Assembly (NCBI RefSeq): GCF_014138605.1
Contig: NZ_JACJHX010000008.1
Span: forward strand, 155,933 to 187,932
Direction of reading: 5' to 3'
DNA from: Peribacillus huizhouensis
GTDB taxonomy: Bacteria > Bacillota > Bacilli > Bacillales > DSM-1321
DNA length: 32,000 nucleotides
A program made the position numbers and the translations under genes. Shown in pieces: positions 1 through 16,389 of the stretch. A model generated the notes under the pieces. That model worked only from the letters and a program-made list of their open reading frames with translations. It searched no databases and was not told the origin of the DNA. Every line of letters starts with the position of its first letter. Position 1 is the stretch's first letter.

Positions 1-900
1 TTCAATGTGTTTCCAAGTGGTGCCCAGACTTATATTGGTGATAGTTGAAGATGCGACATTAAAATTTTTGGCGATTTGTTCATGTGTCAAATTTCCTTGA
101 ACAAGAAGTTTCTTAATTTCAGTAGCATCCTTATCTTTTAGTTTTCTGTATGATGTACTAATGGGAGTGTCAGTAGGGATATGACTAAAGTTCCTTCCTC
201 TGGATATGGCACTAACAGTAGTTATACCCACATTAAATATTTCAGCAATCTCTTTCTGTTTTAATTTCCCTTCTGCTAATAGGTTCTTTATCTGCTTACC
301 TCTTTCTTCTCTTTGTTGTATCCTTGCTTCAATGAAATTCTCTTCGAAGAGGTACTTCCACTTCCTCCCAGTTCCGATTTCATAAACTGCTATTGGAGAT
401 ATACCAAAGGTTTCAGCAATTTGACTACAAAACAGTCCTTCCTTCAAAAGCTCATGGATTTCAAGTACCTGTGAAGCAGTTAGTTTGGAACTACTACTGT
501 TCTCTCCTTGATTTGCTTCTCTTATTTTTCGTCTAGTTTCCTCTGTGACTAATCTGCCTATACCTGCTTCTGCTATCTTTTTCCTTGCTTCTTCTGTGTG
601 GGACCTTCCAAGCATTAAAGCACTTCCACCAAATGTCATGTTGTATCCATTGTTATAAGAATCATAGTGGTTAATCCAATACATTTCCTTCTCATTTAGC
701 TCATCAAGAGTATCTGCTTTATCAATGACTTTCCACTTGAATGATTCCTCACCATATCTTCTGATTGCTCGATGGAAAATAAATTCACTACCACTTCTAG
801 CATCTAACAAGTGTCTTTTCTTTCTTGTCTGTAATGTCCTTATTGTCAACCCAATATACACTTTACGATTAACTGTATTAGTTGCTTTATAAATAATCAA
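1..900 (-). CDS. GIY-YIG homing-endonuclease-like protein with NUMOD3-like and tandem HTH modules (partial, C-terminus beyond window edge)
   Basis: Absent from the ORF track because it runs off the window. My own minus-strand translation from TTG at 900 (AGGTGGA 6 nt upstream) stays open for 300 codons down to position 1. It reads MIIYKATNTVNRKVYIGLTIRTLQTRKKRHLLDARSGSEFIFHRAIRRYGEESFKWKVID..EKEMYWINHYDSYNNGYNMTFGG, giving the GIY..YIG, Arg, Glu and Asn motifs. This is followed by HTEEARKKIAEA and TEETRRKIREA (NUMOD3-like) and three HTH-like repeats (SQIAETFGISPIAVYEI, KEIAEIFNVGITTVSAI, EQIAKNFNVASSTITNI). Confidence 0.8.
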   Translation of the reverse strand, partial: MIIYKATNTVNRKVYIGLTIRTLQTRKKRHLLDARSGSEFIFHRAIRRYGEESFKWKVIDKADTLDELNEKEMYWINHYDSYNNGYNMTFGGSALMLGRSHTEEARKKIAEAGIGRLVTEETRRKIREANQGENSSSSKLTASQVLEIHELLKEGLFCSQIAETFGISPIAVYEIGTGRKWKYLFEENFIEARIQQREERGKQIKNLLAEGKLKQKEIAEIFNVGITTVSAISRGRNFSHIPTDTPISTSYRKLKDKDATEIKKLLVQGNLTHEQIAKNFNVASSTITNISLGTTWKHIE

Positions 901-933
901 TTAGCATCCACCTATTCTATAATAAACAGGACA

Positions 934-1521
934 TTAATCCCCTACACGTTCCCTTACAGCTCTATAAAGAGTTGCCCTGCTTATCTTGGTTATCTGTTCA
1001 ATCTCTTTCACAGTCATCTTATTGGTATTTCTATTATTAAATAACTCAAGGGCATACTGTAAACCACTGTTATTCTCCGTGTATTTCTTAGGTCTTCCTT
1101 TATAGACTCCTCTTCGCTTAGCTTCTTCAATGCCCTCCAATTGCCTTTCCTTAATCATATCAGCTTCAAATTCTGCGATACCAGATAATACTGTTATCAT
1201 TAACTTACCAATTGCTGTTCCTGTATCAATTTTATCTCCACCCATATTCAAGACAATAAGCGAAACACCTTTGCCTTTTAAGTACTCAATAGTGTTTAAA
1301 GCATCTTTGGTACTTCTAGCAAACCTATCTAACTTTGTAACAACAATGGTGTCACCTTCTAGCACTGTCTCAAGGAGTAGATTGAATTGCTCTCTTTCTT
1401 CTTTCTTCCTTCCACTGACCTTTTCTTTAAAAATAATGTCACATCCCGCTTCTTGCAGTTGTTTAATTTGTGCGGTTAGATTTTGACCTGCTGACGATAC
1501 ACGACCATACCCATATTTCAT
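934..1521 (-). CDS. serine recombinase (resolvase/invertase family)
   Basis: MKYGYGRVSSAGQNL carries the catalytic Ser motif. Also present: VVTKLDRFARS, GIAEFEADMIKERQLEGI and a C-terminal HTH (MTVKEIEQITKISRATLYRAV). ATG at 1521 is preceded by GAGGGGG; the track start at 1548 looks like an upstream extension. Confidence 0.9.
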   Translation of the reverse strand: MKYGYGRVSSAGQNLTAQIKQLQEAGCDIIFKEKVSGRKKEEREQFNLLLETVLEGDTIVVTKLDRFARSTKDALNTIEYLKGKGVSLIVLNMGGDKIDTGTAIGKLMITVLSGIAEFEADMIKERQLEGIEEAKRRGVYKGRPKKYTENNSGLQYALELFNNRNTNKMTVKEIEQITKISRATLYRAVRERVGD

Positions 1522-1741
1522 ATCAATTCCCCCTCTATTTCGACACATGTATATGAGACAACTTTAACCTAAGTATATCAATCTCCCAACATTGTATCAA
1601 TAGGGTGTACTTAAATGAAACATTATATTACTACTGGAAATTTAACTAACTATCATTTTGAACTAATCTCAAAAAATAAAACTTATATATCTGCTTTTAA
1701 TGTTAAAATTATCCTAAAAGTACTCTTAGGAGAGAAATAAC

Positions 1742-2560
1742 ATGAAACCAAATGAAGAAATTGTTTTACAAAATAAATTACTTATTAGACACGATTTAAT
1801 TGAAGAAGGACTAACATTAACTGAAAGAGAATCATTGATTCAGATGCGGAAAAGATGCGATATTTTATTTAAAGATAAAGAAGGAAGAAACCTTTATATC
1901 GAGGTGAAAGAAGTAGTAGACGACAAAGCTATCGAACAAATGTTAGGTTACAGAACATTTGTTAAAGACAATGATTCAAGGTTCATGTTGATAGCAAATT
2001 ATCCAATAAACGATAATTACCAATCAAAATTACACGAACTACAAATAGAGTATATGGCTAGAAATAAAAACGATATTCAAGTCCAGTTAAAGAATATAGT
2101 TGAAATACCAAAGGGAAATTCTAATTACCGTACTAAAGAAAATGTTATAAAGAAACTAAATAAACAAGGCACAATTGCAAGTGATATTTACAATTACATA
2201 GCTAACAACTTACATACTTTAAACACCTCGATTATCTGTAATATCTCAGATGGAATTATGTTTCAATTAGTACAATGTAATGAGAAATTTTTATCTATTT
2301 CAACCATCGGAAACCGCTTGCTATTTCATTTCCCTAATGGAAATCGTGATAGTATATACGCCAAATATAAAATTACAATTCCAGAACTATACCGTTACAA
2401 AGATAAGTATTTAGAGAATATTGATAAGGATAAATTTAAAGACAAAGAGCCTAATCAAATTGATATTAAATTAAAACATGTTATAAGTTTGGATTATATC
2501 AAACCACTTATTAATGAAGCATATAAACAGTCATTAATAAGCAGTCGGTCACACATCTAA
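1742..2560 (+). CDS. hypothetical protein with N-terminal NucS/DUF91-like PD-(D/E)xK nuclease-fold motif
   Basis: AGGAGAG RBS 8 nt before the ATG. The N-terminus LIEEGLTLTERESLIQMRKRCDILFKDKEGRNLYIEVKEVVDDKAIEQMLGYRTF matches the LIEEGL..RE..D(I/L)L..D..G..IEVK..Q..Y pattern of NucS C-terminal/DUF91 nucleases. I do not recognise the C-terminal ~170 aa. Confidence 0.55.
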   Translation: MKPNEEIVLQNKLLIRHDLIEEGLTLTERESLIQMRKRCDILFKDKEGRNLYIEVKEVVDDKAIEQMLGYRTFVKDNDSRFMLIANYPINDNYQSKLHELQIEYMARNKNDIQVQLKNIVEIPKGNSNYRTKENVIKKLNKQGTIASDIYNYIANNLHTLNTSIICNISDGIMFQLVQCNEKFLSISTIGNRLLFHFPNGNRDSIYAKYKITIPELYRYKDKYLENIDKDKFKDKEPNQIDIKLKHVISLDYIKPLINEAYKQSLISSRSHI

Positions 2561-2736
2561 ACAACATTAAAATAGTACAGAGTTTCCTAGTTATAAAAGG
2601 AAACTCTGTACTAACCCAAAATATTTATAAAGATATACTTCATTTTTCAAACGTTTAAAAAATTTCATCCGCTTTTACAATCAATAAAAACAACTAGTTT
2701 GACACTTCCTTAAAGGTATACCTTTTTAAACTTTAA

Positions 2737-3648
2737 TCAATGTCCAAATGGCTTTTCTTTTTCAACTGATACTGTTAAAGTTGGTAAACTCCCAACATTA
2801 TCTTCATATTCCGCTTTGTAAATAATACCGTTTTGAGTATAAGATAAAGTTTTTTCCTCTACAATTTTTCCATTACTTAAACCTAAATAGTTAATAGCAA
2901 TTTGTTCTTTATTCTCCCCTTTAGGGTCTGCTATTAATATTAGGTTAGCACCTGCTTGATAAACATCTATATAACCTGATTTATTGTCCGTTACATTTCC
3001 TATAACCACAGCATACGATACCTTACCAGTATCCTTTTCTGTGCTAGCACTAACATATAAAGAATTATTTACTTGTCCATCATAACGAATGCCAAAAGGA
3101 ATTTGGCTTTCTCTTTCATTTTTTATCATAAAATATGAATTATCATAATCATCAACAGATTCATTCCAATAATTACTAAAGGTTTTCCAATCCATATTAA
3201 AGATTGTATTTTCGTAGGTATTTTCTGTACTCTCTTCTTGCGCTACAACTTCCTCTTCATTTATTCCATCTTCTTTTTCAATTAAAGCTTCTAACTCTTG
3301 TTTGTAGGACTTAATTTTATTTGTCAAAGCTTTATCACTTATTCCAATTTCTTCAATTTTACCTAAAGAGTTATAAAAGGAAGCTTCTTTATCACTATCT
3401 GCCTTCATTTCTTGATAATCCTTTTGTATATATTCTAAAAGCACTTTTGAAATAGTTTTGTTTAATTCATCTTTCTTTTCCTTTGATGAATCGTTTGTCG
3501 CATCTTCATAGATTTTTTTTGCTGTAAAATAATCTTTTTCTTCAATTGATTCGACTACTTTTTTTGCAGAGTCTTTACTACTTGCGCCACAGCCACTTAA
3601 GATGACCAAGCTTATTCCTAAAATAATAAATAAGAAATTCCTTTGCAT
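2737..3648 (-). CDS. secreted lipoprotein, unknown function
   Basis: ATG at 3648 with GGAGTGGAGAAGG upstream. The signal peptide MQRNFLFIILGISLVILSGC has a canonical lipobox (LSGC). The track start at 3759 is probably an extension. The C-terminal domain is paralogous to 17068-17649. Confidence 0.75.
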   Translation of the reverse strand: MQRNFLFIILGISLVILSGCGASSKDSAKKVVESIEEKDYFTAKKIYEDATNDSSKEKKDELNKTISKVLLEYIQKDYQEMKADSDKEASFYNSLGKIEEIGISDKALTNKIKSYKQELEALIEKEDGINEEEVVAQEESTENTYENTIFNMDWKTFSNYWNESVDDYDNSYFMIKNERESQIPFGIRYDGQVNNSLYVSASTEKDTGKVSYAVVIGNVTDNKSGYIDVYQAGANLILIADPKGENKEQIAINYLGLSNGKIVEEKTLSYTQNGIIYKAEYEDNVGSLPTLTVSVEKEKPFGH

Positions 3649-4061
3649 CCTTCTCCACTCCCCTATTAAACTATATATGTAATCTAGGATAATTTTACCA
3701 TTTGAAAGCAAATTAAAATAGATATATAAGCCCGTGTCGAAAGTTAAAAAATTGCACACGAAACAAGCATGTCAATAAACATACTTTTATGATTATTTTT
3801 ATCAATTATACGTAATGAAATATTTAACATCTGTAGGAGTGGAACACTTATTTTTCGAGTTTATCGTTCATTTGATAAATCCTCTCTTTTATACAGAAAA
3901 ACCCCATCATAGAAATGGGGTTTCAATCTACTTGCTTTGTGTTTGGAATGCTTGATTAGCATTATATGGTATTTGTGTTTTTTATATAAGGTTAATCGAA
4001 AATTCCAAAGTCCTCATATTTTTGTTTTAATAACGTTTCATTAAATTATCGCAAAACCCTT

Positions 4062-5318
4062 TTATTTAAAAGTGTGGCCGTAGTATTCTTGCAACTTCTC
4101 ATATGCTTTTGCGTATAATTCCAAATACATAAATTCCTTGTTTTTATCCCATTTATTTTTGTCATCGTAAGGGTCGTTCTCAACACTTATAACTTTCCTT
4201 TTTCCACCGTAATCTTCAATTGATTCCTTCACTACCTTTATAGGTGTGTTGAATCTCTCTTGCCTTTTTTTCGCTAACCCAACTACATAATCGTTTCTTG
4301 TTTTATGAAAATCGTTTCTGTTCTCTAAAAAATACTGAATCTCGTTACTGTTATAAAATTCAATTGCTTCACGATTATTTTTCTCTAACCATTTGATAAT
4401 CGGATTCTTTCCTGCACGTAAAAATATTGCATGCGCTGTATAAGCTAATACCAGATATAAACGTTCACCGCTTTCATCCGTAATTCTGTTTAATCTGTAT
4501 TTATACTCTTTCCAGTATTCTTGTACAATCTTCATATTTTTAAGGTTGTGAATTTCCTTCAATGAAAGGTGCTTGTATTTGTCTTGGTTTTGCAGTTCTC
4601 TCTGCATTAAAGAAATTTCCCCTACGACATAAGATGATAGCTCAGGATATTCATATCTATAAGAAATGGATTGCTCCGTTTCTCCGCTCTCATCGTCCCA
4701 ACTTTCTGATATAACTGGAATTTTACATTTTCCCATTTCATACGGTACATGTGTGATTATTTTTGCTTTATTTAACCTTGCAACCACCGCCATAAAATAA
4801 TCGTTCAATCTTTGAATCTCTCTTACTACGTAATCTTCAACAACATCATCATAACCTTTTTTAACGACCTCATTTTCAACTAATCTATTAGTCTCGGCTT
4901 CTAACACCCTTGAATCATATTTCAATTTTCTTGCTTCAAACATTTCTTTAGTAATAAAACCCATATCCAATAACCATTTTGGGATTGTTTGTGGCTTCTC
5001 ACTTTGATGCGTTTCTAAATACTCTAACATCATAATTGGAAATGCTTGCTCATACTTCAATGGCACTTGCCCCTTTCCGTTATTTACACGTTTATCTTTA
5101 CGGTCAGCTTCAACATCACGTTTTGCACCCAATATGTATTTAGTCTTCTTTCCACCCTTACCTATCGTCTCAACACTTTCATATCTTTGGTCTAAATCCG
5201 TAACAAATCGATTAAATATATTTATCATCAACTTATTATTTTTAGCCATATGCTCCTTGATTATGTCGTCACCTTCGATTGCTACAATTTCTTCCTGTGT
5301 AAATTCTGTTTTATTCAC
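4062..5318 (-). CDS. hypothetical protein (418 aa), no recognisable family
   Basis: Long open frame with a GTG start and AAAGGAG about 10 nt upstream. Composition is charged and protein-like. I could not find any catalytic or binding motif. Confidence 0.7.
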   Translation of the reverse strand: MNKTEFTQEEIVAIEGDDIIKEHMAKNNKLMINIFNRFVTDLDQRYESVETIGKGGKKTKYILGAKRDVEADRKDKRVNNGKGQVPLKYEQAFPIMMLEYLETHQSEKPQTIPKWLLDMGFITKEMFEARKLKYDSRVLEAETNRLVENEVVKKGYDDVVEDYVVREIQRLNDYFMAVVARLNKAKIITHVPYEMGKCKIPVISESWDDESGETEQSISYRYEYPELSSYVVGEISLMQRELQNQDKYKHLSLKEIHNLKNMKIVQEYWKEYKYRLNRITDESGERLYLVLAYTAHAIFLRAGKNPIIKWLEKNNREAIEFYNSNEIQYFLENRNDFHKTRNDYVVGLAKKRQERFNTPIKVVKESIEDYGGKRKVISVENDPYDDKNKWDKNKEFMYLELYAKAYEKLQEYYGHTFK

Positions 5319-5900
5319 TTAAAACAAACTCCTTTTATTTTGAAATTCATACTTTCTTAAAAAAGATACATAATTGCCTTATGATAATATATATAATTTA
5401 TTATAGGTCGATATTGTATCTTTTTTCTTCCTTAACCAAAACCCAAGCCGTTAAATCTCCGCTATCGCTCCGATTCACCGACTCCACATCCACAACTTCG
5501 TTGTGTCTGTGCAACAAATACTTTTCTTTCACATTAACAATTGAGTGGAGGAGCGAGCTGTTAAGCTTGCTTTTGAAAATCAACCTCATGGAGTTATCAA
5601 CGAAACGGAATAGCGTAATGAGTGGATTTGCCTTTCATCAATTTATTACCTATTTAATTTATCTTAAATACCCACCTGATAATCCCTCACCTTCAAATAT
5701 AAATGGTTTCTCATATCAAAAGACCACAGATATGTCAACCATTTATATTTAAATTATACCATATTTTTTTATTCCAGTCCAAAAACCTCTTAATTAGTAC
5801 GTTAATTCATTAAAGTGTCGTATCTTTATTTTGATTTTCCTACAAAACAAAAAAAACAGAAAATCGGTCTTTATTATCGAAATAGTTCTTGTTTGTCTAT

Positions 5901-6205
5901 GGAGTGATGAAATGGAGTTTCAACCACAAGTGGGAGCTCTAATATGCTTATCATCACAAATAGCATTTCAAGTGAGGCCGATGGAAGTGCCACTCATTGA
6001 TTCTGAAGGGGAAACCCATGTTATGGTGATAAGCGCCCCGACACATCAAGAAACACACCCATTATTAGTGAGCGCGTTTCTTTGCATCTTAATGCGAGGG
6101 AAAATCCTTAGACTCTTCGTTCTCTCTTCTTTCTTTGACTTTCTGAATACTTGGCTAGATTTTATAAGAAGGAGCAGAAAACGAGGTTGCAGCCGCTAGT
6201 ATTTA
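5901..6205. repeat. long copy of a modular dispersed repeat, RNA-like (GC-richer, helix-rich), non-coding
   Basis: Contains module X (GGAGTGATGAAATGGAGTTTCAACCACAAGTG, 5901-5932) and module Y (ATGGTGATAAGCGCCCCGACACATCAAGAAACACACCCATTATTAGTGAG, about 6023-6072). A second X-like module is GGAGCAGAAAACGAGGTTGCAGCCGCTAG (6171-6199). Related modules recur at 18928-19092 and 22603-22695. The ORF at 5831..6199 is not protein-like. Confidence 0.6.
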
Positions 6206-6331
6206 CAAATTCATTAAAGGACTCGCTTTAAAGCTGCTTTAAAACCTTTTTTATAATCTTTTAATTAAAGTAGCGCTTCATATTTAAACTAGCTCTTTCA
6301 AATTAAGTAATAGTTTTTTATAGTAGATAGC

Positions 6332-6479
6332 TTACAAATAAGAACGAAGGTTTTTTACTAGCTCATCAACATCTAAATGCAAATATTTAGTTGTTACCGA
6401 AATATCACTATGACCTAAAGCCTTTGAAATCACAGCAACATTCGCCCCTTTATCTAACAAGGATTTAGCAAAACCTCTT
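6332..6479 (-). pseudogene. tyrosine recombinase/integrase C-terminal remnant
   Basis: The minus-strand translation gives RGFAKSLLDKGANVAVISKALGHSDISVTTKYLHLDVDELVKNLRSYL*. This is the conserved C-terminal box II region (LGHSD..TT..Y.H with the catalytic Tyr). No upstream continuation exists beyond 6480. Confidence 0.75.
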
Positions 6480-6845
6480 CAATATTTAGATACAACGCTT
6501 AATAAATATTTTCAAAGGGACTGAAGCAGCCACTATTAGTAAAAACATATTTACAGTCTGGTGTGAGACATACATAGACTTATAAGCATTTTGTGAAATG
6601 CAGCTTTTAGTTGTCTTCAGATAGAATGTCAACTTTGGTAATAATGCAGTTTCGCAATACTTTATGTCACAGAATCTTATGTGTCATCAATTGAGGTTCA
6701 GAAACTGATTTCTTTAAAATTTGGTAATATAAGTAAAAAATTGTATTAATTGATATTTCCAAATACGACATAACTTTATCAATCCCAAAAATCCCTATTA
6801 CAATTTCTACCGTATTAAAATATATATGTATTTTTTCTAAATTAA

Positions 6846-6876
6846 ACACCTCGCCAGATTGACGAGGTGTTTTTTC
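6846..6876. terminator. stem-loop terminator downstream of the methyltransferase gene (bidirectional-looking)
   Basis: ACACCTCG (6846-6853) pairs with CGAGGTGT (6863-6870) around a 9-nt loop. It has a TTTTTC run on the + side and a TTTAATTT run on the - side. It lies immediately after the MTase stop at 6877-6879. Confidence 0.6.
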
Positions 6877-8289
6877 TTAGTTTTTATATTCTAACTTCTT
6901 TTCAGCATCCACTTTAGAAGGTTTAGAAAATTCTTTATTTACCATTTCTTGTTTTAATAAACCGATTCGTTTAGTTACTGCTTCTTGTTGCATTTCAAGT
7001 TTATTTATTTCCCCTTCATAATGTTCAGGAACTGATAATAGCTGAGTTTCCCCTAGATAAATTTCTTTAATTTTATTACCCATCTTTTCAATAAGCCCGA
7101 CCACTAATGCATTTCCCATACAGAAGTAACGCATTCTTTCTGGCATAGTATTAGTCCAATTAGGAGGAAAATCATTTAGTATTTCACATTCAATTGGTGT
7201 TAGTATTCTTAATCTTCCAGTATCCAAATCCGACACTACGTGAGTACTTCTGTTTTTAGTACCTTCACTAGTTAACATCGTTCTTCCAGGGCTGTCCAAA
7301 TCATCTGGAAAATTCATACCTCCTTCGGAATAAGTATACACATGGCCCGATTGAGAAGTTCTCTCTATTTTCTTCGACCCTTTTAAATATTTAAAGTGTT
7401 CAAGTGCCGTTTTCCCATTTTTCCCAACTTTATCTATATCTAAATAATACCTTTCATCTATTACTTGTCCATACTCTTTTGCTTCTCTTAATACTTGTCC
7501 CAATGTTTTTGAAGGAATAGTCTTAGGAATTACTTCTTCAGTATAGAAATTTCCGTTTCTCATTATTCCAGAGTTTCTAAAATTAGCTGTAAATGTATCT
7601 GACACCTCTACAATATCAAGAGGTAGTGTATCGTCAGAAACTGGATGTTTTAAAGAAGTGCCTTCCAATGGAAACTCTGACGCAAAGAAACCTTTTTCAT
7701 GAATTAATTCTTGTGGAGAATAGCCAGATTCTTCTTGTTTTTTTGCAAATTGTGTTTCATTTTTATAGGCAAAAATAAATACTCTTCTCCTCTTTTGTGC
7801 CATACCATAATCTGCTGCATTAATCATTCGCCATTCAACGCTATATCCTAAATCTCTAAAGCTTGCTAACATAACAGCAAAGTCTCTCCCCTTTCGTTTT
7901 GAAGGAGACTTTAATAATCGGTCAACATTTTCCAAGAGGACAAACGATGGAGTATTCATTCTTATAATATCCATTATTTCCCAAAATAAAACACCCTTTT
8001 TTCCTTGAATACCCGCTTCCCCATTTAATGTACGTGCGACAGAGTAATCTTGGCACGGAAATCCCCCTACTAATAAATCATGTTTAGGAATTTCATATTT
8101 TGCTATTGCGATATCTTCATTACTATGGAAGCCTCTATCTTCAAAGCGTTTATCATAGCAATTGAAGGCGTGTTGTGTCTTATGTGATGGTTCCCATTGG
8201 TTTCCCCAAAGGACATTGAATCCTTCATTTCGTTCTAAACCTAATCGGAATCCTCCTACTCCTGCAAAAAGTTCTACTACATCTATCAT
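6877..8289 (-). CDS. DNA (cytosine-5)-methyltransferase, Sau3AI-methylase-like subfamily
   Basis: All canonical C5-MTase motifs are present: VVELFAGVGGFRLGL (I), GGFPCQDYS (IV), LLENVDRLL (VI), QKRRRVFIF (VIII), MGNALVVGL (X). The NQWEPS, GIQGKKGVLFW and RLLKSPS..RGRDFAVML strings resemble what I recall of M.Sau3AI-type enzymes; that is recollection, not a search. Confidence 0.95.
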   Translation of the reverse strand: MIDVVELFAGVGGFRLGLERNEGFNVLWGNQWEPSHKTQHAFNCYDKRFEDRGFHSNEDIAIAKYEIPKHDLLVGGFPCQDYSVARTLNGEAGIQGKKGVLFWEIMDIIRMNTPSFVLLENVDRLLKSPSKRKGRDFAVMLASFRDLGYSVEWRMINAADYGMAQKRRRVFIFAYKNETQFAKKQEESGYSPQELIHEKGFFASEFPLEGTSLKHPVSDDTLPLDIVEVSDTFTANFRNSGIMRNGNFYTEEVIPKTIPSKTLGQVLREAKEYGQVIDERYYLDIDKVGKNGKTALEHFKYLKGSKKIERTSQSGHVYTYSEGGMNFPDDLDSPGRTMLTSEGTKNRSTHVVSDLDTGRLRILTPIECEILNDFPPNWTNTMPERMRYFCMGNALVVGLIEKMGNKIKEIYLGETQLLSVPEHYEGEINKLEMQQEAVTKRIGLLKQEMVNKEFSKPSKVDAEKKLEYKN

Positions 8290-8575
8290 AAAAATAAGGA
8301 CATCCTTTCGATATATATTTATCTAATTATTATTATAATAAATACTTAAATAAAGATCAACCATAATAACTATGGTAAATGAGGGCATATAATAACTCCC
8401 AAAATAAAATTTCAAAACAGATTCTACTATAATAAGACATTTTTATTATTCTTTATCTCTATGAAAAAGAAAAACATGAACTTGATTATACCATATTCAC
8501 TCAAGATTATTTCAACTTCCAGAATAGGGAGATTCAAAAAATCACAATGACTTATAAACATAAATATTAATTATT

Positions 8576-8610
8576 AAAAAGAATAGAGGTTAACCCTCTA
8601 CTCTTTTTCT
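8576..8610. terminator. stem-loop terminator downstream of the recombinase pseudogene
   Basis: TAGAGG (8584-8589), loop TTAAC, then CCTCTA (8595-8600). An A-run lies upstream and a T-run downstream, so it is usable on either strand. Confidence 0.5.
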
Positions 8611-8745
8611 TCATATTTAGTAATATTATTATATCAGTAGTCTGAATCTCATTTCTTATATCCTATAAATCAATTTGAATTTATTAGTGATGGTCAACTG
8701 TTAATAAAACTCATTATTTTCATCGTAAATCTATTACATAGAAAC

Positions 8746-9360
8746 TCATTTTTTCCCCTCGTATTCCTTCACTTTTCTGTAAAATGTAGCCTTAGACATT
8801 CCCATTGTCTCCATAAATTTCACCGCTGATATCTCCCCTGCTTTCCACTGACTGTAATACTTTTTCCATTCTGTTGGTATTGCTACTGCCGGCCTTCCGA
8901 ACTTGACTCCATTCTTCATTGCTATTGCGATACCCTCTGCCGGCCTTGTCTTTATTCCTTCTCTTTCCTTCTCAGCAAATGCAGTAAGCAATGTAAGGAT
9001 GATTTTTTGAATTGCCTGTTTCATAATGTCGTCCTGCTAGTTACTTGTATTAATCATAGGCTCTTTTATGAAACAAAGCTTGACACCATTTTTAACAAAC
9101 CAATCATATTCAATTAATGTCTCATTCATATTTCTACCCATTCGAGAGATAGAATCAAATACGACTGTATCCCCTTCACGAACCATCTGCTTAAGTAGTA
9201 GATACTTAGGTCTTACAAAGTCTTTTCCGCTTGCCTTATCGATAAAAATATCACGTTCACCTATTCCTTTGTCTTTCATTGTCTCAACTTGTCTTGCCTC
9301 GTTCTGCTCCTTAGAGGATACACGAACAGAGGTTAGTTTCATAGCAACTGACAATAACAT
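8746..9360 (-). pseudogene. serine recombinase inactivated by one in-frame amber codon
   Basis: ORFs 9037..9360 (VRVSSKEQNEARQ, catalytic Ser region) and 8746..9024 (FAEKEREGIKTRPAEGIAIA plus HTH MSKATFYRKV) share one frame. They are separated only by TAG at 9037-9039: ..INTSN*QDDIMKQAIQ... No convincing RBS precedes either candidate start. Confidence 0.85.
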
Positions 9361-9421
9361 ACTTGATTAAATAAATTACAAATAAGCTACCGCTAGTTTT
9401 ACAGACTTATGGTAGCTTATT

Positions 9422-10417
9422 TTATAACTTCGCCCTATAAACAGTTGGTTTTAAGTTCAATGAGTCTTTAAGGTCACCTTCGACTCTATAGAACTTTCCT
9501 GAATTAGAATTATGGTCATATTCATAGACTCTATATAACTCATAGTTATTTGTATATTCTAAAGAAAACGCCAATTCATTAGCAGTTATTATAAACGGGG
9601 TATTAATTCCACCTTTTGTAGTTTTAACCTCTATGTATAATGAAGTACCATCCTCTTTAAAGGCTTCTATGTCATAGCCTGCTCCATCTCCTTCTATGAC
9701 TGAAGTATGAATAGTGTCATATCCTAAAACATTCTTGAGATGGTTAACAACTAATAATTCCCCTTTTAATCCAAGCTCAGAATTTCTTTTGCTGTTCTCA
9801 GCATAATCAACCTTGGTAGCATAAAAGCTTCTTGATTCTTTTGCTTTATCAGGCATCAAACTTGGTCGCTGAGTTTCGACTAAATGGTCTTTAACTAAAT
9901 CCTCTTGATTGATTAAGGGTTCTAATGTTAAATCCATTCTATCTAATACATTCGAAGGAGGTACCTCCCAATCTATAATCTGCCACTTAAAATAAACTGG
10001 TTGTTCCCTAGTTGTATCATGTGTAAGATACGCTAGTCTCCCCAAGTAAGTAAAGGGTTCAACTTGTTTAGTTAGACTATTCTTCTTTTTAGTTCTTAAA
10101 AATAGGTATATATTCTCTATTAAATGATTATGACTAATCAATTGCTTTATCACTTTATTATCCAGCGTCTGTTTAGGCTGAGATTGCCAAGTTAATATAC
10201 CATCTTCAGTTATACTTTCATCAAAATCATGGCCTAGTTGTTTTTGTCCAAATGTTACAAAAAACACAAAGTCCTTTTTCCTTTTCGGAATCTTTACAAG
10301 TCCATGAAGTCCCCAATTTCCCGCTCCTATTGTAAATGGAGTTACACCATCAAAGATTTTATATACATCATCTCTAGAGTATTGGTCATATAAGTTGAGA
10401 CGCTTAATTGACACCAT
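9422..10417 (-). CDS. DUF3427-like (SauUSI-type modified-DNA reader) fused to DUF3883-like PD-(D/E)xK nuclease domain; candidate type IV restriction enzyme
   Basis: The N-terminal half (YSRDDVYKIF..FVFFVTFGQ..ITEDGILTWQSQPKQ..IYLFLRTKK..FTYLGRLAY..QPVYFKWQIIDW) matches the DUF3427 pattern I recall. The C-terminal half (LGLKGELLVVNHL..GAGYDIEAFKEDGTSLYIEVKTTKG..FIITANELAF..YELYRVY) matches DUF3883. ATG at 10417 has AGGAG 5 nt upstream; the track GTG at 10423 overlaps the RBS. Confidence 0.8.
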   Translation of the reverse strand: MVSIKRLNLYDQYSRDDVYKIFDGVTPFTIGAGNWGLHGLVKIPKRKKDFVFFVTFGQKQLGHDFDESITEDGILTWQSQPKQTLDNKVIKQLISHNHLIENIYLFLRTKKKNSLTKQVEPFTYLGRLAYLTHDTTREQPVYFKWQIIDWEVPPSNVLDRMDLTLEPLINQEDLVKDHLVETQRPSLMPDKAKESRSFYATKVDYAENSKRNSELGLKGELLVVNHLKNVLGYDTIHTSVIEGDGAGYDIEAFKEDGTSLYIEVKTTKGGINTPFIITANELAFSLEYTNNYELYRVYEYDHNSNSGKFYRVEGDLKDSLNLKPTVYRAKL

Positions 10418-10432
10418 TTTCACTCCTAAACT

Positions 10433-11056
10433 CTATATCATTTGAATATTTTGAATTATAACTCTATCAATCTGATTATATTGTTGCTCATTAACGATTC
10501 CGTTTAAACATAGAGGAGGTCTTTGATTCCTAATTTTCGCTCGTTGTACAACAGTATCTGTATTAAAGAAACCGTATATTACAGAAACAATTGCTTCATG
10601 ATACCTAGTTATTGGCAACCTGACGCCTATCTTCCCTCTAATCCTAGGATAGTTTATTTCTTCCTGGCCTATTAACCAATACACTAGTTGTACAAATTGT
10701 CTCCCATTATAAGTGACATTACCAAATTCAATAGTAAATTGTGGATTCACTTGGGTATCTAAACCACTAATCAATATATCCATTAAAGTATTACTTAATT
10801 CTATCGCTTTGTCTAATCTTTGGTTCAGCGGAAACGAAAGTAAATAGTGCTCAATTGCATATATAATATCCCCATGAGAAAAGCTGTTACCATTAACACT
10901 TAATCTATAGTCTCCTCTCCCTTTATAAGTCGGATATTCTAAAATTAAATTTTCTACATCACACTCTGGTCGATATGTTAAATCATAATTGTTAGTATTT
11001 TGGGGTACATTTCGGTAATTATTTTGCATTGTATCAATTAAAAAACTAAAAGGCAT
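10433..11056 (-). CDS. hypothetical protein (207 aa), operon partner of the DUF3427/DUF3883 gene
   Basis: ATG with GGGAGATGGA upstream. Its TAG stop (10433-10435) lies 15 nt before the next ATG, and that gene's RBS sits in the gap. I recognise no motif. Confidence 0.7.
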   Translation of the reverse strand: MPFSFLIDTMQNNYRNVPQNTNNYDLTYRPECDVENLILEYPTYKGRGDYRLSVNGNSFSHGDIIYAIEHYLLSFPLNQRLDKAIELSNTLMDILISGLDTQVNPQFTIEFGNVTYNGRQFVQLVYWLIGQEEINYPRIRGKIGVRLPITRYHEAIVSVIYGFFNTDTVVQRAKIRNQRPPLCLNGIVNEQQYNQIDRVIIQNIQMI

Positions 11057-11485
11057 TAGCTTCCATCTCCCATTTCTTTAGTTCAATTGTATATCCAATT
11101 ATTTACTAAAACAACTACATTACTAACTATCTAGCATTTATAGGGAACAAACGGTAACAGAAAAAAATTTTATTACCCCACCCCGTGCCGAATGTTCCCT
11201 TTAGTGACCAATAAAACATGGTAACGCTCGTTAACAAGCGAGAAAAATTCGAAAATTTATCAAGATACATACGAATCAAACTACTTTTCTATTACAATTT
11301 TCTAGAGAATATTACAAGTTTCGAACTTTGTTCGTATATCTCAAGATTATTATATTCTTTGATTTTTCATTAGGCATAGATTTATTCTTGGTTATACAAA
11401 TGTGCTAGTGGCAATTCTAAGGATTCTTCTCTTAATCACCTAAACTCCCCATATAAATAGTACATTATAATCAACTAATATTTTT

Positions 11486-12958
11486 TTATTCAATAAACGG
11501 CTGTTCGTGTAATAATGCTACTAAAGTGCTCCCCTTCACCCAAACGTTTTGACGATACATCGCAATGTTATTTATCGTCACCGGCTTAATAGTTGAATCT
11601 TTTCCTGAGCCTCGAATAAATATGTCGTAATCTTTTGATTTTGGAAAATTAACAGACGTTTTCAATGTACCCGATTTATTTATTTGGGGTTTTCCATCCT
11701 TTCCATATTCAATTTCGTCTCGTAATTCGTTGTAATGAATTAAACGTCTTACTTCAAGCCATACTTGCTGCAAGTCTTGTTCAATTATTGAATCTGGAAA
11801 TACAAATCGTTTAAATCCTTGAAATTTGTTATCTAATAACTTCGCATCTGAGGACGGCTCCTCAAATAAAATAAATAATAATTGCTGTAATTTAAACGCT
11901 TGATACACCGCGGATTGTTCAAAAGTTGTATTCACTTCTGTCCACTCCTCAAAGTCGATAGGAAATAGTTTCGTATCTTCTGTACGTGTACCATTTTTCG
12001 TCATCGTCAAGGTTTTCGGTAAAAGCCCAATTTTATGAAACAACTCAATTTTACTTAGCTTTTTTGCTTTTCCTCCAAACATGCGCACTATAATTTGCTC
12101 CGCGATAGATTTTGATACATCATTTTTTTTATTTAGTTTTATCGGAATTTGTAACTCATCCATTAGCTCACGAATCGTTTTCCCACGATGCGACTTGGTT
12201 ATTTGCTTTAACTTTTCATCAATTTGTGCAAACGATGTATAACTTTCCGTTAATTGCTCTAGCTTTTGACCGAAATGATTTTGCACAATCGTTGAAACGG
12301 TAGTACGCTTTAAACGGAAACGTGGTCGGTTCGGCCATTTCGGTGCGATATCAATTAGCATTAACTGCTTGCGCAATTCAGAAGAAATGCTGTGATATAG
12401 CTTCTCAGGCTTGGAGTAATTTTGCTGTAAGAATTCAATAAATGTTCGAACAAGTTCCCAGTCGTTTTGAAGCGTTTTTCTATCCTCTTCTGAAAAAGTA
12501 TGGAAATGATAATCCTCAATAATGAAGTTGGCATATTCAAGAGCCGGTACTGTTTGTTCTGCTGCGTAATGATAGTAAACTAGCAATAAATTCTGAAGCT
12601 TATGCCAAAAATTTGAGCTTTCAAAGTACTCCTCCACAATTCGTTCCGGCGAAACAGCCGTAATCGACATCGGCTCCTTCGCCTCAAATTCATGCTCACT
12701 TTTCTTTTTTGGTTTACGAATACCAGTTGTTTTCAGCTCAACAGGGACTCCATCTACAAGTAAATCAGCCTCTTGTTTCGAATCTGCAGGGTAACCTAGC
12801 ACAGATTGTTCAATGACATCACCTGCGATTCCTGTAATTTTAGGTGAAATACGCGCACGGTCAAAAACTCGATTTTTATCAACTTCTCCTAACGATTTCC
12901 CTACAACATTATCCAAGATTTGATGCAACTGAGACTTTTTAAAAACATGTCCAGCCAT
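11486..12958 (-). CDS. Sau3AI/MutH-family type II restriction endonuclease
   Basis: The N-terminus GKSLGEVDKN..ITGIAGDVIEQSVLGYPADSKQEADLLVDGVPVELKTTG fits the MutH/Sau3AI G..G..E..LG....D...(E-x-K) catalytic pattern. Length is 490 aa from ATG 12958 (AAGGAGTG 6 nt upstream), about the length I recall for R.Sau3AI. The track GTG at 12967 abuts the RBS. Confidence 0.85.
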   Translation of the reverse strand: MAGHVFKKSQLHQILDNVVGKSLGEVDKNRVFDRARISPKITGIAGDVIEQSVLGYPADSKQEADLLVDGVPVELKTTGIRKPKKKSEHEFEAKEPMSITAVSPERIVEEYFESSNFWHKLQNLLLVYYHYAAEQTVPALEYANFIIEDYHFHTFSEEDRKTLQNDWELVRTFIEFLQQNYSKPEKLYHSISSELRKQLMLIDIAPKWPNRPRFRLKRTTVSTIVQNHFGQKLEQLTESYTSFAQIDEKLKQITKSHRGKTIRELMDELQIPIKLNKKNDVSKSIAEQIIVRMFGGKAKKLSKIELFHKIGLLPKTLTMTKNGTRTEDTKLFPIDFEEWTEVNTTFEQSAVYQAFKLQQLLFILFEEPSSDAKLLDNKFQGFKRFVFPDSIIEQDLQQVWLEVRRLIHYNELRDEIEYGKDGKPQINKSGTLKTSVNFPKSKDYDIFIRGSGKDSTIKPVTINNIAMYRQNVWVKGSTLVALLHEQPFIE

Positions 12959-13178
12959 GTAACTCACTCCTTTTTAGTCTAGATATCTTATCAAAAAGAA
13001 AGACACCTTTTTAACACACATAATTAAATACAGTCCCATAAATTCAATTAAAATATCGTTTTGTTCTCGCTATTTTATTTTCGATACAATATTTCTTCAT
13101 AAGTCGTATAAAATACCCTCGATTATATATAGCTGCATTCACTTTTAAGTAATCTAATATTATCCGTATTGTATACGT

Positions 13179-13775
13179 CTACCTAAATCTCCGATATTTC
13201 GTTATTAATGTGACCCATCTTTCAATTGCATTTTTATTGTAAATTTTAATGATACCCTTGCTATTAATATTAGCCTTGTATTCTAAATTTTGAGGAATAC
13301 TTAGATTAGCAAAAGTCTCCAAAGCCGTATAACCAAATACAATTGCAACTTGTACGGTTTCTATGAAATTATACATTACCCTTAGATTTCATAATTATTG
13401 ATTCATTACGGCTCATATCCCCAAAATCTTCTAAACGATTTACAGCATCTAGGTTTATCTCTTTCTTATAAATTTCTTTAGCATTCAATTATACTTTGTT
13501 TGCAACTGATAATAGTATCCCAACATTATTAGGAGCATAGTAGTCAATCGTCTTTATTCTACCGTTTATGCTTGTTTGAAATTCAAAAGTTTCACCTCTT
13601 GTAGTACCATAGAGCCTGTCTCTCCATATAGAGCATTATACTTATAACAATTAGGTTTATTGGCTCGTATGTCAAAAGATGTATAGTTCTTTGGGTTTCT
13701 TGTAATAACTAAAGACTCTTTACCATTCTTGGTTTCATTTTGTTTTTTGGGGGGATTTTTTCTTTTTGTTATCAA
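13179..13775 (-). pseudogene. decayed gene remnants (several frames), possibly HEPN-like
   Basis: Protein-like pieces occur in different frames. These are ..NALYGETGSMV / LYGTTRGETFEFQTSINGRIKTIDYYAPNNVGILLSVANKV* / LNAKEIYKKEINLDAVNRLEDFGDMSRNESIIMKSKGNV* / MYNFIETVQVAIVFGYTALETFANLSIP... At least two frameshifts and one stop are present. The family call is weak. Confidence 0.35.
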
Positions 13776-14562
13776 AATTCCCTCCCACCTGCTGAAATTC
13801 TATTTCTCTTTTCTTATTTTCAAAAATAATATCTAACCTCTCTACCCAATTCATACCTAAATGAGCATTTAGTAGGACGTTAAGAGCTTCATAAGACCAT
13901 ATTTGAATTCTTTCATCATAATTCCTTAATTTATCGTTGACATAGCCTGTACAAAAGATAACTCCTCTATTTACCTTGTCATTAATAATTGTAAAACCTA
14001 GACTTCGGACATCATTGATTGTTAACTTAGTAGTTCTATATAATTTACATTCAACGTATACTTTTTCGTTCCCATCTGGTCTCTTGATAGACGCCATTAT
14101 ATCTTTTCCTCCATCACGGGTTGCAGGAGTCCAAGCAGTTTGGTAACCCATCCTTCTATACAATTCTTCTATTAACCATTCAAATTCAGTAGGTTTCAAT
14201 TTCGCCAACTTTTCTAATGGATTTTCGAAATAGATAAACTTTTCCATTATGATTTCCGCACACTGTTCAATTCCAGTATTCCTATCGTCTGGTATACTCG
14301 GCTCAGAAATAATGTAATTCTCAAGTGCTATAATTGCTTTATATGGTCGATAGGGTAAAAATTCCAAAATCCAAGTTAATCCTTCCCATGCTTCCTGTCT
14401 ATTTTCAATTCTATGATACAGTTCTATTTTTGGGTTGTTACCAATGATGGTATTAGTATTAGACTCAGAGTTAGCCTGACTCATAAGGTTAATATCCTCG
14501 TAAGTTCTTATATCTAATTCTCTAGAAAAAGGAACTAGTAAACATCTTAATAAGTCTTTCAC
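13735..14562 (-). CDS. Mrr-cat (type IV restriction endonuclease-like) domain protein with unknown N-terminal domain
   Basis: The C-terminal half PTEFEWLIEELYRRMGYQTAWTPATRDGGKDIMAS..KVYVECKLYRTTKLTINDVRSLGFTI..NRGVIFCTGYV matches the Mrr_cat pattern (FE..V..L...GY.....DGG.D......QCK.y). The start is ambiguous: GTG 14562 or ATG 14484 (the latter has GAGGA upstream). Confidence 0.8.
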   Translation of the reverse strand: MKDLLRCLLVPFSRELDIRTYEDINLMSQANSESNTNTIIGNNPKIELYHRIENRQEAWEGLTWILEFLPYRPYKAIIALENYIISEPSIPDDRNTGIEQCAEIIMEKFIYFENPLEKLAKLKPTEFEWLIEELYRRMGYQTAWTPATRDGGKDIMASIKRPDGNEKVYVECKLYRTTKLTINDVRSLGFTIINDKVNRGVIFCTGYVNDKLRNYDERIQIWSYEALNVLLNAHLGMNWVERLDIIFENKKREIEFQQVGGNFDNKKKKSPQKTK

Positions 14563-15117
14563 TTCTTATACTGACCTATTATGAATTCTTTCTAGTTAAT
14601 CATCTAGCCACTCCCTGTCCCTGTAAGAAATCATACAAAAGGGAACAACCAATTCATTACTATCAGAAACTAGAGAGAACCATTCATCAAAACTAGTGTA
14701 ATTATCACTGTAGTACAAACAAACACCTCCAATAGAAATCAGGTAGTACTTCAGTATTATAAATAGGATAATTATACCATGATAATTTATTTTGGGAACA
14801 GAGTATTTTATAATGTACTTCATTCCTGTAGACTGGAAAAGATTTCGGCAGAATGACACTTTGTTTTAGGAGGTGGTAAGTCGTTTTAACAGTCTAAGGC
14901 GGTCAAAACTTCACAAATAAAAAAAGCCCTTCCTGCTTAGCACAGAAAAGCACCTTTTTCGTTGAAAAAGACTAACCAGTGATATTTGCAATAGAAGAAA
15001 AGTGACTGACCCAACAGCCCTCCACCTTCCATTTGTAAATGTATTCCATTTAATTTGAAATATTGTATACTGTTAGTAAGGACTTCCAAATGTGGTATAG
15101 AGGAGTGTTAACTAAAT

Positions 15118-16389
15118 ATGAATGACAGAATTAATGGATGGACAACATCAAGAGACTCTGCTGTTTGCGATGACATTGAATTGAAAAAGACATCTACTAC
15201 TAGACTTATTTTCAGACCTGAAATAGTGAACAATATTAATAATCCTGAGGCATCTGTTAGAGGTTGCTTCATCTTTCAAATGAAAGGTAAAAATGCCTCT
15301 TGGGAAGATTTTAAAGAGTTAGAGTTAAATAAATTAAAAGTTGAGGAATGGATTAAGCTAGAGCTAAACTCTGAGGCTATGCTGCCTCTTACTAGAGAAA
15401 TTCAGAAACATTATGCAGTACATGAAAAGTATGGGGTTATGTAAGGAGGATTTCACCTTTTCAAGAATAGCCCTGATATTGAGAGACTGATTGAAATTTA
15501 TGAGAGTAACACTAATCTATTTACTCAATTAATGAAGGATGATATGAGTGAAGCATTAGAGAAAACATTAGAATTGATTGTTACAAATGATAATCCAGAT
15601 AAAATAATTGACAGGCTTAAAAACCTACAGGAGAAAGATTTAGACCAACTTAATACTCTTGTTGGGATAGCTAACCTAAAAAAAGTATTGTCTGTTTGGG
15701 ATGGCAACAAACTCAATAATACCTCTGAGAAGTTTTGACAAAGTGTCTTGAAAGAAAATACTTGGATTTTGAGTCAGATTTTCTCTAATCCAACCGTTTT
15801 GATAAATGATGAGGCTTATGTAGGAGGAAAGACTATCAACAATGATAGTGGCAAGCTAATTGATTTATTATATGCGAATCCCTTCTCAAAAGATGCTATA
15901 CTTATTGAAATTAAGACTTCCTCAACTCCTCTAATTACTCCCAATGAGTACAGAACAGGAGTATATTCAGTACATAAGGACTTGATGGGAGCAGTTACAC
16001 AAGTATTAACTTATAAGACAAGCCTACAGAGGGAGTATCTAAATACCAAAGGGTTTTGATGTTCCATTTTAGTATATCTAGGAAGTTACCTGTACTCCGC
16101 AAGGTATGGACTCTTTAGAGAGACCTTTGTATCTCATATTTCACTTCATAGCGTGGGGGCGGTAAAGCTTGGACACTCTAATCCACTTCAAATCATTTAT
16201 CTTAGTGATAAGCACCTGATAGATATTCCTTATTTTTGCATACGTAAAATTCATGTTAATAGAGCGGATAATTTAAATAATCGTACGGCGCATATTATTT
16301 ATGATTGCGCGGCTGTAACACTAACAAACGTTCATTTGAGTAAACCGCCCATTTATAAAATGAATTATCTAGTTACAATTCATATTTAA
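15118..16389 (+). pseudogene. sduA: Shedu (DUF4263) nuclease gene interrupted by three in-frame stop codons
   Basis: ORFs 15118..15444, 15532..15738, 15748..16059 and 16153..16389 all sit in frame 1. The frame is broken only by TAA 15442-15444, TGA 15736-15738 and TGA 16057-16059. The core LKENTWILSQIF..GKLIDLLYANPFSKDAILIEIKTSSTPL..YSVHKDLMGAVTQVLTYK fits the DUF4263 PD-(D/E)xK pattern. Whether the tail beyond 16059 is Shedu-derived is uncertain. Confidence 0.75.

Follow-up and report, generated by a model that had tools for sequence, protein, structure and literature searches.

A McaZI-type modification-dependent nuclease gene and a separable, unannotated family of small proteins in a Sau3AI-like cassette of Peribacillus huizhouensis

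A stretch of 32,000 nucleotides from Peribacillus huizhouensis (contig NZ_JACJHX010000008.1, positions 155,933 to 187,932 of the forward strand), hereafter called the window, carries in a defence island two neighbouring genes, one for a protein of 207 amino acids (aa) and the other for a 331-aa protein in which a DUF3427 domain is fused to a DUF3883-type nuclease domain. Judged from its sequence, the 331-aa fusion is a modification-dependent restriction enzyme of the McaZI/BwiMMI/EfaL9I type, a family which has already been published, and the 207-aa protein is, by the same kind of evidence, a member of a real, unannotated and previously unrecognised family of about 170-210 aa, which is here called FAM207. 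The 207-aa gene is not a regular partner of the fusion gene, and the two modules are separable. The explanation favoured overall, and a probable one, is a known Type IV nuclease with an independent FAM207 gene, of the kind associated with restriction-modification (R-M) systems, in front of it.

The fusion protein carries a DUF3427 and a NOV_C domain only, and neither a helicase or ATPase domain nor a PLD nuclease nor an extra PUA domain was found in it with Pfam; an ATPase is also missing from the operon according to Pfam and PADLOC. The match to DUF3427 (PF11907, E 3.4e-11; the score of 43.4 bits exceeds the cutoff, 27.7) spans profile positions 126-265 of 280, and the C-terminal part matches NOV_C (PF13020), which is the former DUF3883. 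Both assignments had been made in the original prediction from short strings, YSRDDV, FFVTFGQ, EDGILTWQSQ, IYLFLR, FTYLGRL and VYFKWQIIDW for the N-terminal domain and GYDIEA, YIEVKTT, ANE and YELYRV for the C-terminal one, and they are borne out by Pfam, all of the strings being present in the translation. The putative catalytic residues are D249 and E263-V-K265; across 56 homologues D249 and K265 never vary, and E263 is retained in at least 90%. A large protein search gave 1064 homologues, of which the best 120 all have PF11907 together with PF13020, are mostly 320-345 aa long and are named “DUF3427 domain-containing protein” by NCBI. In PADLOC, residues 178-330 match the model PDC-S36 (E 1.6e-38, profile positions 119-278 of 280); a full-length match is not reached, the N-terminal reader lying outside it, and a literature search for PDC-S36 gave nothing. 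The C-termini of PD-T4-1 and TmtA also match the C-terminal half of the fusion in PADLOC.

An AlphaFold2 (AF2) model of the fusion, made from the 56-sequence alignment, has a mean predicted local distance difference test score (pLDDT) of 86.9. When it was compared with the PDB by Foldseek, the best matches were MspJI (4f0p, E 5e-5) and AspBHI (4oc8), and the SRA domain of SUVH5 with DNA containing 5-methylcytosine (5mC) or 5-hydroxymethylcytosine (5hmC) was matched with a target template modelling (TM) score of 0.55-0.60 (0.60 for 3q0b). Further matches include the SRA domains of ScoMcrA and of UHRF1/2, and AbaSI, and the C-terminus of the model resembles the Holliday-junction resolvase Hjc (target TM 0.45-0.49; 0.49 for 2wj0). 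AlphaFold and Foldseek, which had been proposed for both proteins, thus led to SRA readers and nucleases for the fusion, whereas they gave no fold match in PDB or BFVD for the 207-aa protein. A search of the fusion profile against PDB sequences reached no chain, that of SauUSI included, and because of this the link to SauUSI is drawn from the Pfam DUF3427 match and the SRA fold. In the crystal structure of SauUSI the target-recognition domain (806-953), which is covered by DUF3427, has an SRA fold (PMC7913695), and therefore only profile positions 126-265 of DUF3427 match the fusion.

The original prediction regarded this architecture as new, but ATPase-free fusions of DUF3427 with DUF3883 have already been published as the McaZI group, which was defined after a screen of DUF3427 + PD-(D/E)xK fusions and for which UniProt then, in 2019, listed 439 proteins (Lutz et al. 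2019, NAR 47:9761, PMC6765204). When McaZI (338 aa), BwiMMI (336 aa, from B. wiedmannii) and EfaL9I (323 aa) were produced from single genes, they bound 5mC/5hmC DNA tightly, attenuated T4gt in E. coli and proved toxic, in part only mildly, to Dcm+ cells, the toxicity being dependent on Dcm (PMC6765204). The window protein shares with them the two-domain architecture without an ATPase and a similar length (331 aa against 323-338 aa), and also the neighbourhood, because a GATC C5 methyltransferase and Sau3AI/MutH-like open reading frames (ORFs) adjoining the gene have already been described for this group (PMC6765204). The difference is that the window copy is preceded by FAM207, a gene which is undescribed in PMC6765204. 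Over 99% of its length the fusion shares 53% identity with P0032, the representative of a 53-member cluster of 336-aa proteins of the B. cereus group including B. wiedmannii, although the BwiMMI accession, WP_000732259, is not among the 15 cluster members listed, so that membership of BwiMMI is unconfirmed.

Among other systems, SauUSI has a DUF3427 reader in common with the window protein, with an SRA fold in SauUSI and a presumed recognition of 5mC/5hmC, but it differs in having a PLD nuclease, an SF2 helicase/ATPase and a coupler, all of which the window protein lacks, the nuclease here being of the PD-(D/E)xK type. MspJI and AspBHI (Type IIM/IV) likewise join an N-terminal SRA-like reader to a C-terminal PD-(D/E)xK nuclease, but they belong to another sequence family than the DUF3427 and NOV_C of the window protein, and the whole-chain query TM score is only 0.22. 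YenY4I contains the same DUF3427-DUF3883 core and, unlike the window protein, an additional N-terminal domain of the PUA superfamily.

These likenesses, with the domains and the SRA-like model, support the view of the original prediction that the fusion may be a compact 5mC reader-nuclease. By analogy, the SRA-like DUF3427 domain would read 5mC/5hmC DNA through base flipping, which is also the specificity to be expected for the window copy, and the DUF3883/NOV_C domain with D249 and E263-x-K265 would cut or stall the DNA without an ATPase. By homology, the nuclease would act without a partner protein and would restrict DNA whose cytosine modification falls outside the methylated context of the host itself, and its gene lies nested in a Sau3AI-like cassette as is usual in the family. 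FAM207 is a separate module with a putative promoter of its own and not a dedicated subunit of the nuclease, its role being, as a best guess, accessory to the methyltransferase or the R-M cassette rather than to the nuclease. As regards the nuclease itself little changes: a published Type IV family gains a further member, in a context likewise published.

The two genes are tightly linked, and the layout first described, with the stop codon of the upstream gene, the AGGAG and the start codon of the downstream gene in close succession, was confirmed by the ORFs and the sequence. Both are conserved, with 16 close homologues of the 207-aa protein against the 1064 of the fusion. No terminator is present in the 15-nt gap between them, and a terminator-like hairpin 3' of the fusion gene (-17.4 kcal/mol, z = -4.6 in RNA folding) closes the unit; this hairpin is covered by DNA homology to the loci L008 and L009, which continues to position 9319. 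On the other side, the DNA homology to L001 and L008 reaches 73-75 bp upstream of the FAM207 start codon, and the alignment between loci shows a conserved block at about 11131-11086, a putative promoter, in which inspection for a conserved operator-like palindrome revealed no convincing one. FAM207 and the nuclease gene are probably co-transcribed in one small subclade of the Bacillaceae. Such an arrangement, with 15 nt between the genes, a ribosome-binding site in the gap and no terminator, would also suit an obligate two-component modification-dependent system in which the 207-aa protein regulates, specifies or inhibits the nuclease, and the fact that the fusion-linked FAM207 proteins fall within one subclade is in its favour as well; even so, this reading is considered quite improbable, because the characterised members of the nuclease family work as single genes in E. 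coli and because of the distribution of the two genes.

FAM207 precedes the fusion gene in three of the eight readable settings of its close homologues, namely in L008, L009 and the window, where, depending on the start codon chosen, the two genes are 9-18 nt apart or overlap slightly. In the others the 3' neighbours are different: the PADLOC candidate system PDC-M62A/B in L001/2, a 491-aa protein of no known identity in L003/4, and in L005 genes for 195, 228 and 220 aa with PDC-S56 behind them. In L007/L072 FAM207 is followed by nothing, a LacI gene lying 557 bp downstream in L007; L007 is the same region as the B. thuringiensis plasmid pH3-552. A distant relative, 33-34% identical, has a 64-aa MutH fragment at this place (L006). 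A protein of about 200 aa, encoded at 4429-5040 of L003 and at 6600-7199 of L005 and 82% identical between them, was also noticed downstream of FAM207 in two gene orders, and it has no match in Pfam or PADLOC.

Conversely, a search with the family hidden Markov model found no FAM207 in seven fusion contexts (L010, L076/77, L078/79, L014-16, L011, L012 and L013), even though the fusion is 78% identical to that of the window in L010, 80% in L076/77 and 67% in L078/79. These contexts were obtained mainly by exact-protein look-ups, a contig scan with a single fusion protein having given four loci. For an obligate pair, the absence of FAM207 beside homologues as close as 78% and 80%, and the disproportion between more than 1000 fusion homologues and 16 close FAM207 proteins, are hard to accommodate. 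Therefore the proposal of a new defence pair does not hold generally: co-occurrence, on which it had been made to depend in advance, fails across the fusion contexts and stands within one small subclade.

DNA comparisons illustrate how the modules separate. The homology of the window to L008 and L009 comprises both genes, from 11055/11070 to 9319, which speaks for a two-component system; that to L001, however, comprises FAM207 and 73 bp upstream only, and that to L010 the fusion gene only. Furthermore, L001 (2750-2810), and likewise L002, still has behind FAM207 the ribosome-binding site together with some 10 codons of a fusion gene, and the sequence then switches to the PDC-M62A/B cassette beside a phage integrase. 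The FAM207 protein of L001 is 82% identical to a fusion-linked FAM207 and nests within the fusion-linked subclade, so the downstream effector was evidently swapped and FAM207 with its promoter region was kept. Against an obligate pair stand FAM207 proteins of 76-82% identity which in L001 lead PDC-M62 in place of the fusion gene, and the significance of FAM207 lies partly here, in that the defence genes behind it are exchanged and FAM207 itself stays where it is.

The 207-aa protein had been described as free of any recognisable motif, and this agrees with the searches, in which no match was obtained in Pfam, NCBIfam, PADLOC or PDB sequences. The 16 close homologues are all from Bacillaceae. 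A profile search of 1.84 billion representatives extended the family to 186 members at E <= 1e-3, mostly 170-250 aa long, these being representatives at 50% identity, and the source names in the family-profile protein search are all “hypothetical protein”. The conserved motifs are YPGxKxxGDY, H61, NG98, W..LQEEINYP, G144..LP..RYxEA and R172, and the family signature can also be written as YPxxKxxGDY, H61, WLIGQEEINYP and RLPIxRYxEA. Little or no variation is seen at the polar residues D49, H61, Q131, E132, N135, R151, E154 and R172, a pattern suggestive of an active or binding site. The AF2 model is of mixed alpha/beta type (pLDDT 86, predicted TM score 0.86), but Foldseek searches of PDB and BFVD gave noise alone (TM <= 0.26) and the family profile matched nothing among PDB sequences. 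In addition, 66 members scanned with Pfam and PHROGs showed no common family and no helix-turn-helix (HTH), hhalign found no relationship to the fusion family, and 50,697 phage records contained no homologue. The isoelectric points of the members span 4.9-9.7. A MutH-like or PD-(D/E)xK domain was considered for FAM207 and rejected, because neither the fold nor the profile searches support it.

The surroundings of FAM207 give more indication of what it may belong to. Scans of metagenomes and viruses added 55 loci, and with the earlier loci these form 33 clusters at 85% identity, the gene calls in the metagenome loci being crude. A C5 methyltransferase, MutH-like or Vsr gene is present in the locus in 15 of the 33 clusters and immediately adjacent in 10; where at least 5 kb of flank is available, such a gene occurs in 12 of 24 clusters, in eight of them within 300 bp. 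Among the 76 neighbours within two genes that were scanned with Pfam, MutH (8), DNA_methylase (5), UvrD (3) and Vsr (3) rank first. The gene orders vary, and FAM>M>R, R<FAM>M<, FAM>R>M<, R>FAM>FAM> and M>R<Vsr<FAM> were seen, where M is the methyltransferase and R the endonuclease. The methyltransferase of the window is 45-53% identical to those adjoining distant FAM207 genes. In L058 (4498-6477) a 659-aa ORF even joins a C5 methyltransferase (1-460) to a complete FAM207 domain (480-649), with a Sau3AI-like gene 60 bp upstream. Remnants of R-M genes also lie beside close homologues, namely fragments of a methyltransferase gene in L003 and of a MutH gene in L006 and, directly upstream of FAM207 in L007/L072, another methyltransferase fragment, a full dcm gene being 4.4 kb away. 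Other members adjoin D12 adenine methyltransferases or HsdM. FAM207 is therefore associated with R-M cassettes, mainly of the Sau3AI type, or stands alone in defence islands, and a conserved family without annotation or a fold match in PDB and BFVD that is found repeatedly beside the M and R genes of a GATC-type cassette is of interest in itself.

From these neighbourhoods it may be suggested, tentatively, that Sau3AI-type and some other R-M cassettes have in FAM207 a functional third component, which works with the methyltransferase. It is conceivable on this suggestion that it controls R-M expression or activity or aids the establishment of the cassette, or, at a similarly modest level of likelihood, that it protects methylated DNA against Type IV enzymes, the adjacent McaZI-type nuclease being one of them, and its adjacency to the nuclease could then possibly be a by-product of sharing one cassette. 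The recurrence, in many orders and in very diverse metagenomic lineages, immediately beside genes for C5 methyltransferases, MutH-like proteins and Vsr, the D12 and HsdM neighbours, the joined ORF of L058 and the C5 methyltransferase or MutH fragments are all in agreement with such a role. On the other hand, in about half of the informative loci no R-M gene lies nearby, for example in a human-gut cluster lying between IS30 and a transporter gene (TctA), many Sau3AI-like cassettes such as those of L014 and L078 have no FAM207, and neither an HTH or other DNA-binding signature nor a common charge, with isoelectric points from 4.9 to 9.7, is seen. FAM207 resembles controller (C) proteins and Vsr in being a small gene beside M and R of type II cassettes, often next to Vsr, but it carries no HTH, Vsr or PD-(D/E)xK signature, has no fold match, varies in position and orientation relative to R and M, and about half of its loci are without an R-M system. 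An identity as an R-M controller protein was rejected for these reasons, there being no HTH, no fold match and no constant gene order. If FAM207 does modulate R-M establishment or methyl-dependent restriction, it would be a new accessory class for type II systems, and such modulation, if true, might help to explain the poor behaviour of McaZI-group enzymes in vitro.

Alternatively, FAM207 may be an autonomous single-gene defence or counter-defence protein which clusters with immunity genes in islands, for instance an inhibitor which methylating cassettes carry against Type IV methyl-dependent nucleases, but this is held to be rather unlikely. Its promoter-like region, its frequent occurrence as a monocistronic gene followed by a convergent one, and the near-invariant polar residues, which suggest an active or binding site, fit an autonomous protein, as do the neighbours McrBC-like, HNH, PDC-M62 and PDC-S56; on plasmids FAM207 stands beside a McrBC-like pair or an HNH gene and is often monocistronic. 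Moreover, in L057 (1585-3027) tandem FAM207 genes of 179 aa and 299 aa directly follow a Sau3AI-like gene. Nevertheless, no PADLOC model matches FAM207, the 50,697 phage records are devoid of it, no evidence indicates an effector activity, and the enrichment beside one type of R-M cassette exceeds what co-location in islands alone suggests.

Several points weigh against the favoured explanation, that of a known nuclease and an independent FAM207 gene. The readable settings of close FAM207 homologues number eight only. The window, L008 and L009, three genomes whose flanks differ, keep the pair in one 1.75-kb block, and inheritance as one block makes a clade-specific functional link possible. 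McaZI-group enzymes cleave poorly in vitro and missing cofactors have been suspected (PMC6765204); a partner protein is therefore not absurd, and this behaviour could be taken as a hint of a missing factor in a two-component system. The unconfirmed membership of BwiMMI in the P0032 cluster and the crude gene calls of the metagenome loci belong here too, and the methyltransferase-FAM207 fusion is known from a single metagenome contig. With these points taken into account, the favoured explanation is still regarded as the probable one, and the features on which it is based are collected in Table 1.

Table 1. Features of the two-gene unit and of the enclosing cassette (positions in the window)
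Feature	Positions	Strand	Basis
FAM207 gene, 207 aa	10433..11056	-	ORF, ATG start; TAG stop 10435-10433
Fusion gene, 331 aa from ATG 10417; alternative GTG 10423	9422..10417	-	ORF
DUF3427 domain of the fusion, SRA-like, residues 6-145	9983..10402	-	Pfam PF11907
NOV_C/DUF3883 PD-(D/E)xK nuclease core of the fusion, residues 219-304	9506..9763	-	Pfam PF13020, E 1.6e-18
AGGAG ribosome-binding site, inside the 15-nt intergenic gap	10423..10427	-	read in the sequence
Promoter-like region 5' of FAM207, contains TGgaTATACAAT	11057..11131	-	conserved between loci
Terminator-like hairpin, 12-bp stem and U-rich tail, closing the two-gene unit	9380..9422	-	RNA fold
Sau3AI-like (MutH-domain) type II restriction endonuclease, R gene	11486..12967	-	Pfam MutH, E 7.7e-25
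Serine recombinase (resolvase) pseudogene, between fusion gene and M	8746..9360	-	Pfam Resolvase matches split over two ORFs
C5 cytosine DNA methyltransferase, M gene	6877..8289	-	Pfam DNA_methylase, E 1.4e-65

The genes in the window follow each other in the order R, FAM207, fusion, resolvase pseudogene and M, so the position of the pair between a C5 methyltransferase and a Sau3AI-like endonuclease in a defence island is as first reported, and FAM207 and the fusion can both be described as guests of one Sau3AI-type cassette. The R protein gives a full-length match to REase_II in PADLOC (E 7e-148), and with NCBIfam Sau3AI (NF040973) it reaches 179 bits, which is under the equivalog cutoff of 300. 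The cassette probably recognises GATC. In the whole window there are 21 GATC sites against about 95 expected from the base composition, and in positions 1-15000 one site against about 43, a depletion which fits long exposure to a GATC-specific R-M system.

Comparable cassettes are found around other fusion genes. In L014-16, a BwiMMI-type setting which differs from the window in having no FAM207, the fusion lies between two MutH-like genes and a C5 methyltransferase with a GmrSD-like gene adjoining, and the setting of L078/79, whose fusion homologue is 67% identical, is the same with two MutH-like genes. Further Type IV genes were observed nearby, namely a GmrSD_N protein in L014 and a SauUSI-like gene with PLD and SNF2/helicase parts in L078. 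Between the window and L014/L078, R is 55-59%, M 56-64% and the fusion 53-67% identical; these values are similar, and therefore the three genes diverged together. The window lends further weight to the view that 5mC-dependent nucleases accompany Sau3AI-type cassettes and form a layered defence with them.

The resolvase pseudogene, which is interrupted by an in-frame stop (...MINTSN*QDDIMKQ...), is probably a leftover of the event that brought the cargo into the cassette. A second resolvase, which is intact, is encoded at 934-1548 (-). As possible ends of the cassette, a 25-nt imperfect inverted repeat (9319-9343 and 11487-11511) was considered and rejected, since its perfect core is just 11 nt, matches of 11 nt are expected about 10 times per 9 kb by chance according to our estimate, and the homology block stops at about 11131 and not at 11511.

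Some other genes of the island deserve mention. Two encode further nucleases, namely a 275-aa Mrr_cat protein (13735-14562, -), beside the Sau3AI-like gene, and a protein of 272 aa (1742-2560, +) which has a NucS_C-like domain. A 108-aa ORF (15118-15444, +) matches the N-terminal domain of Shedu SduA (E 1.2e-35), and it is followed by a separate 103-aa ORF (15748-16059, +), so the Shedu gene looks fragmented.

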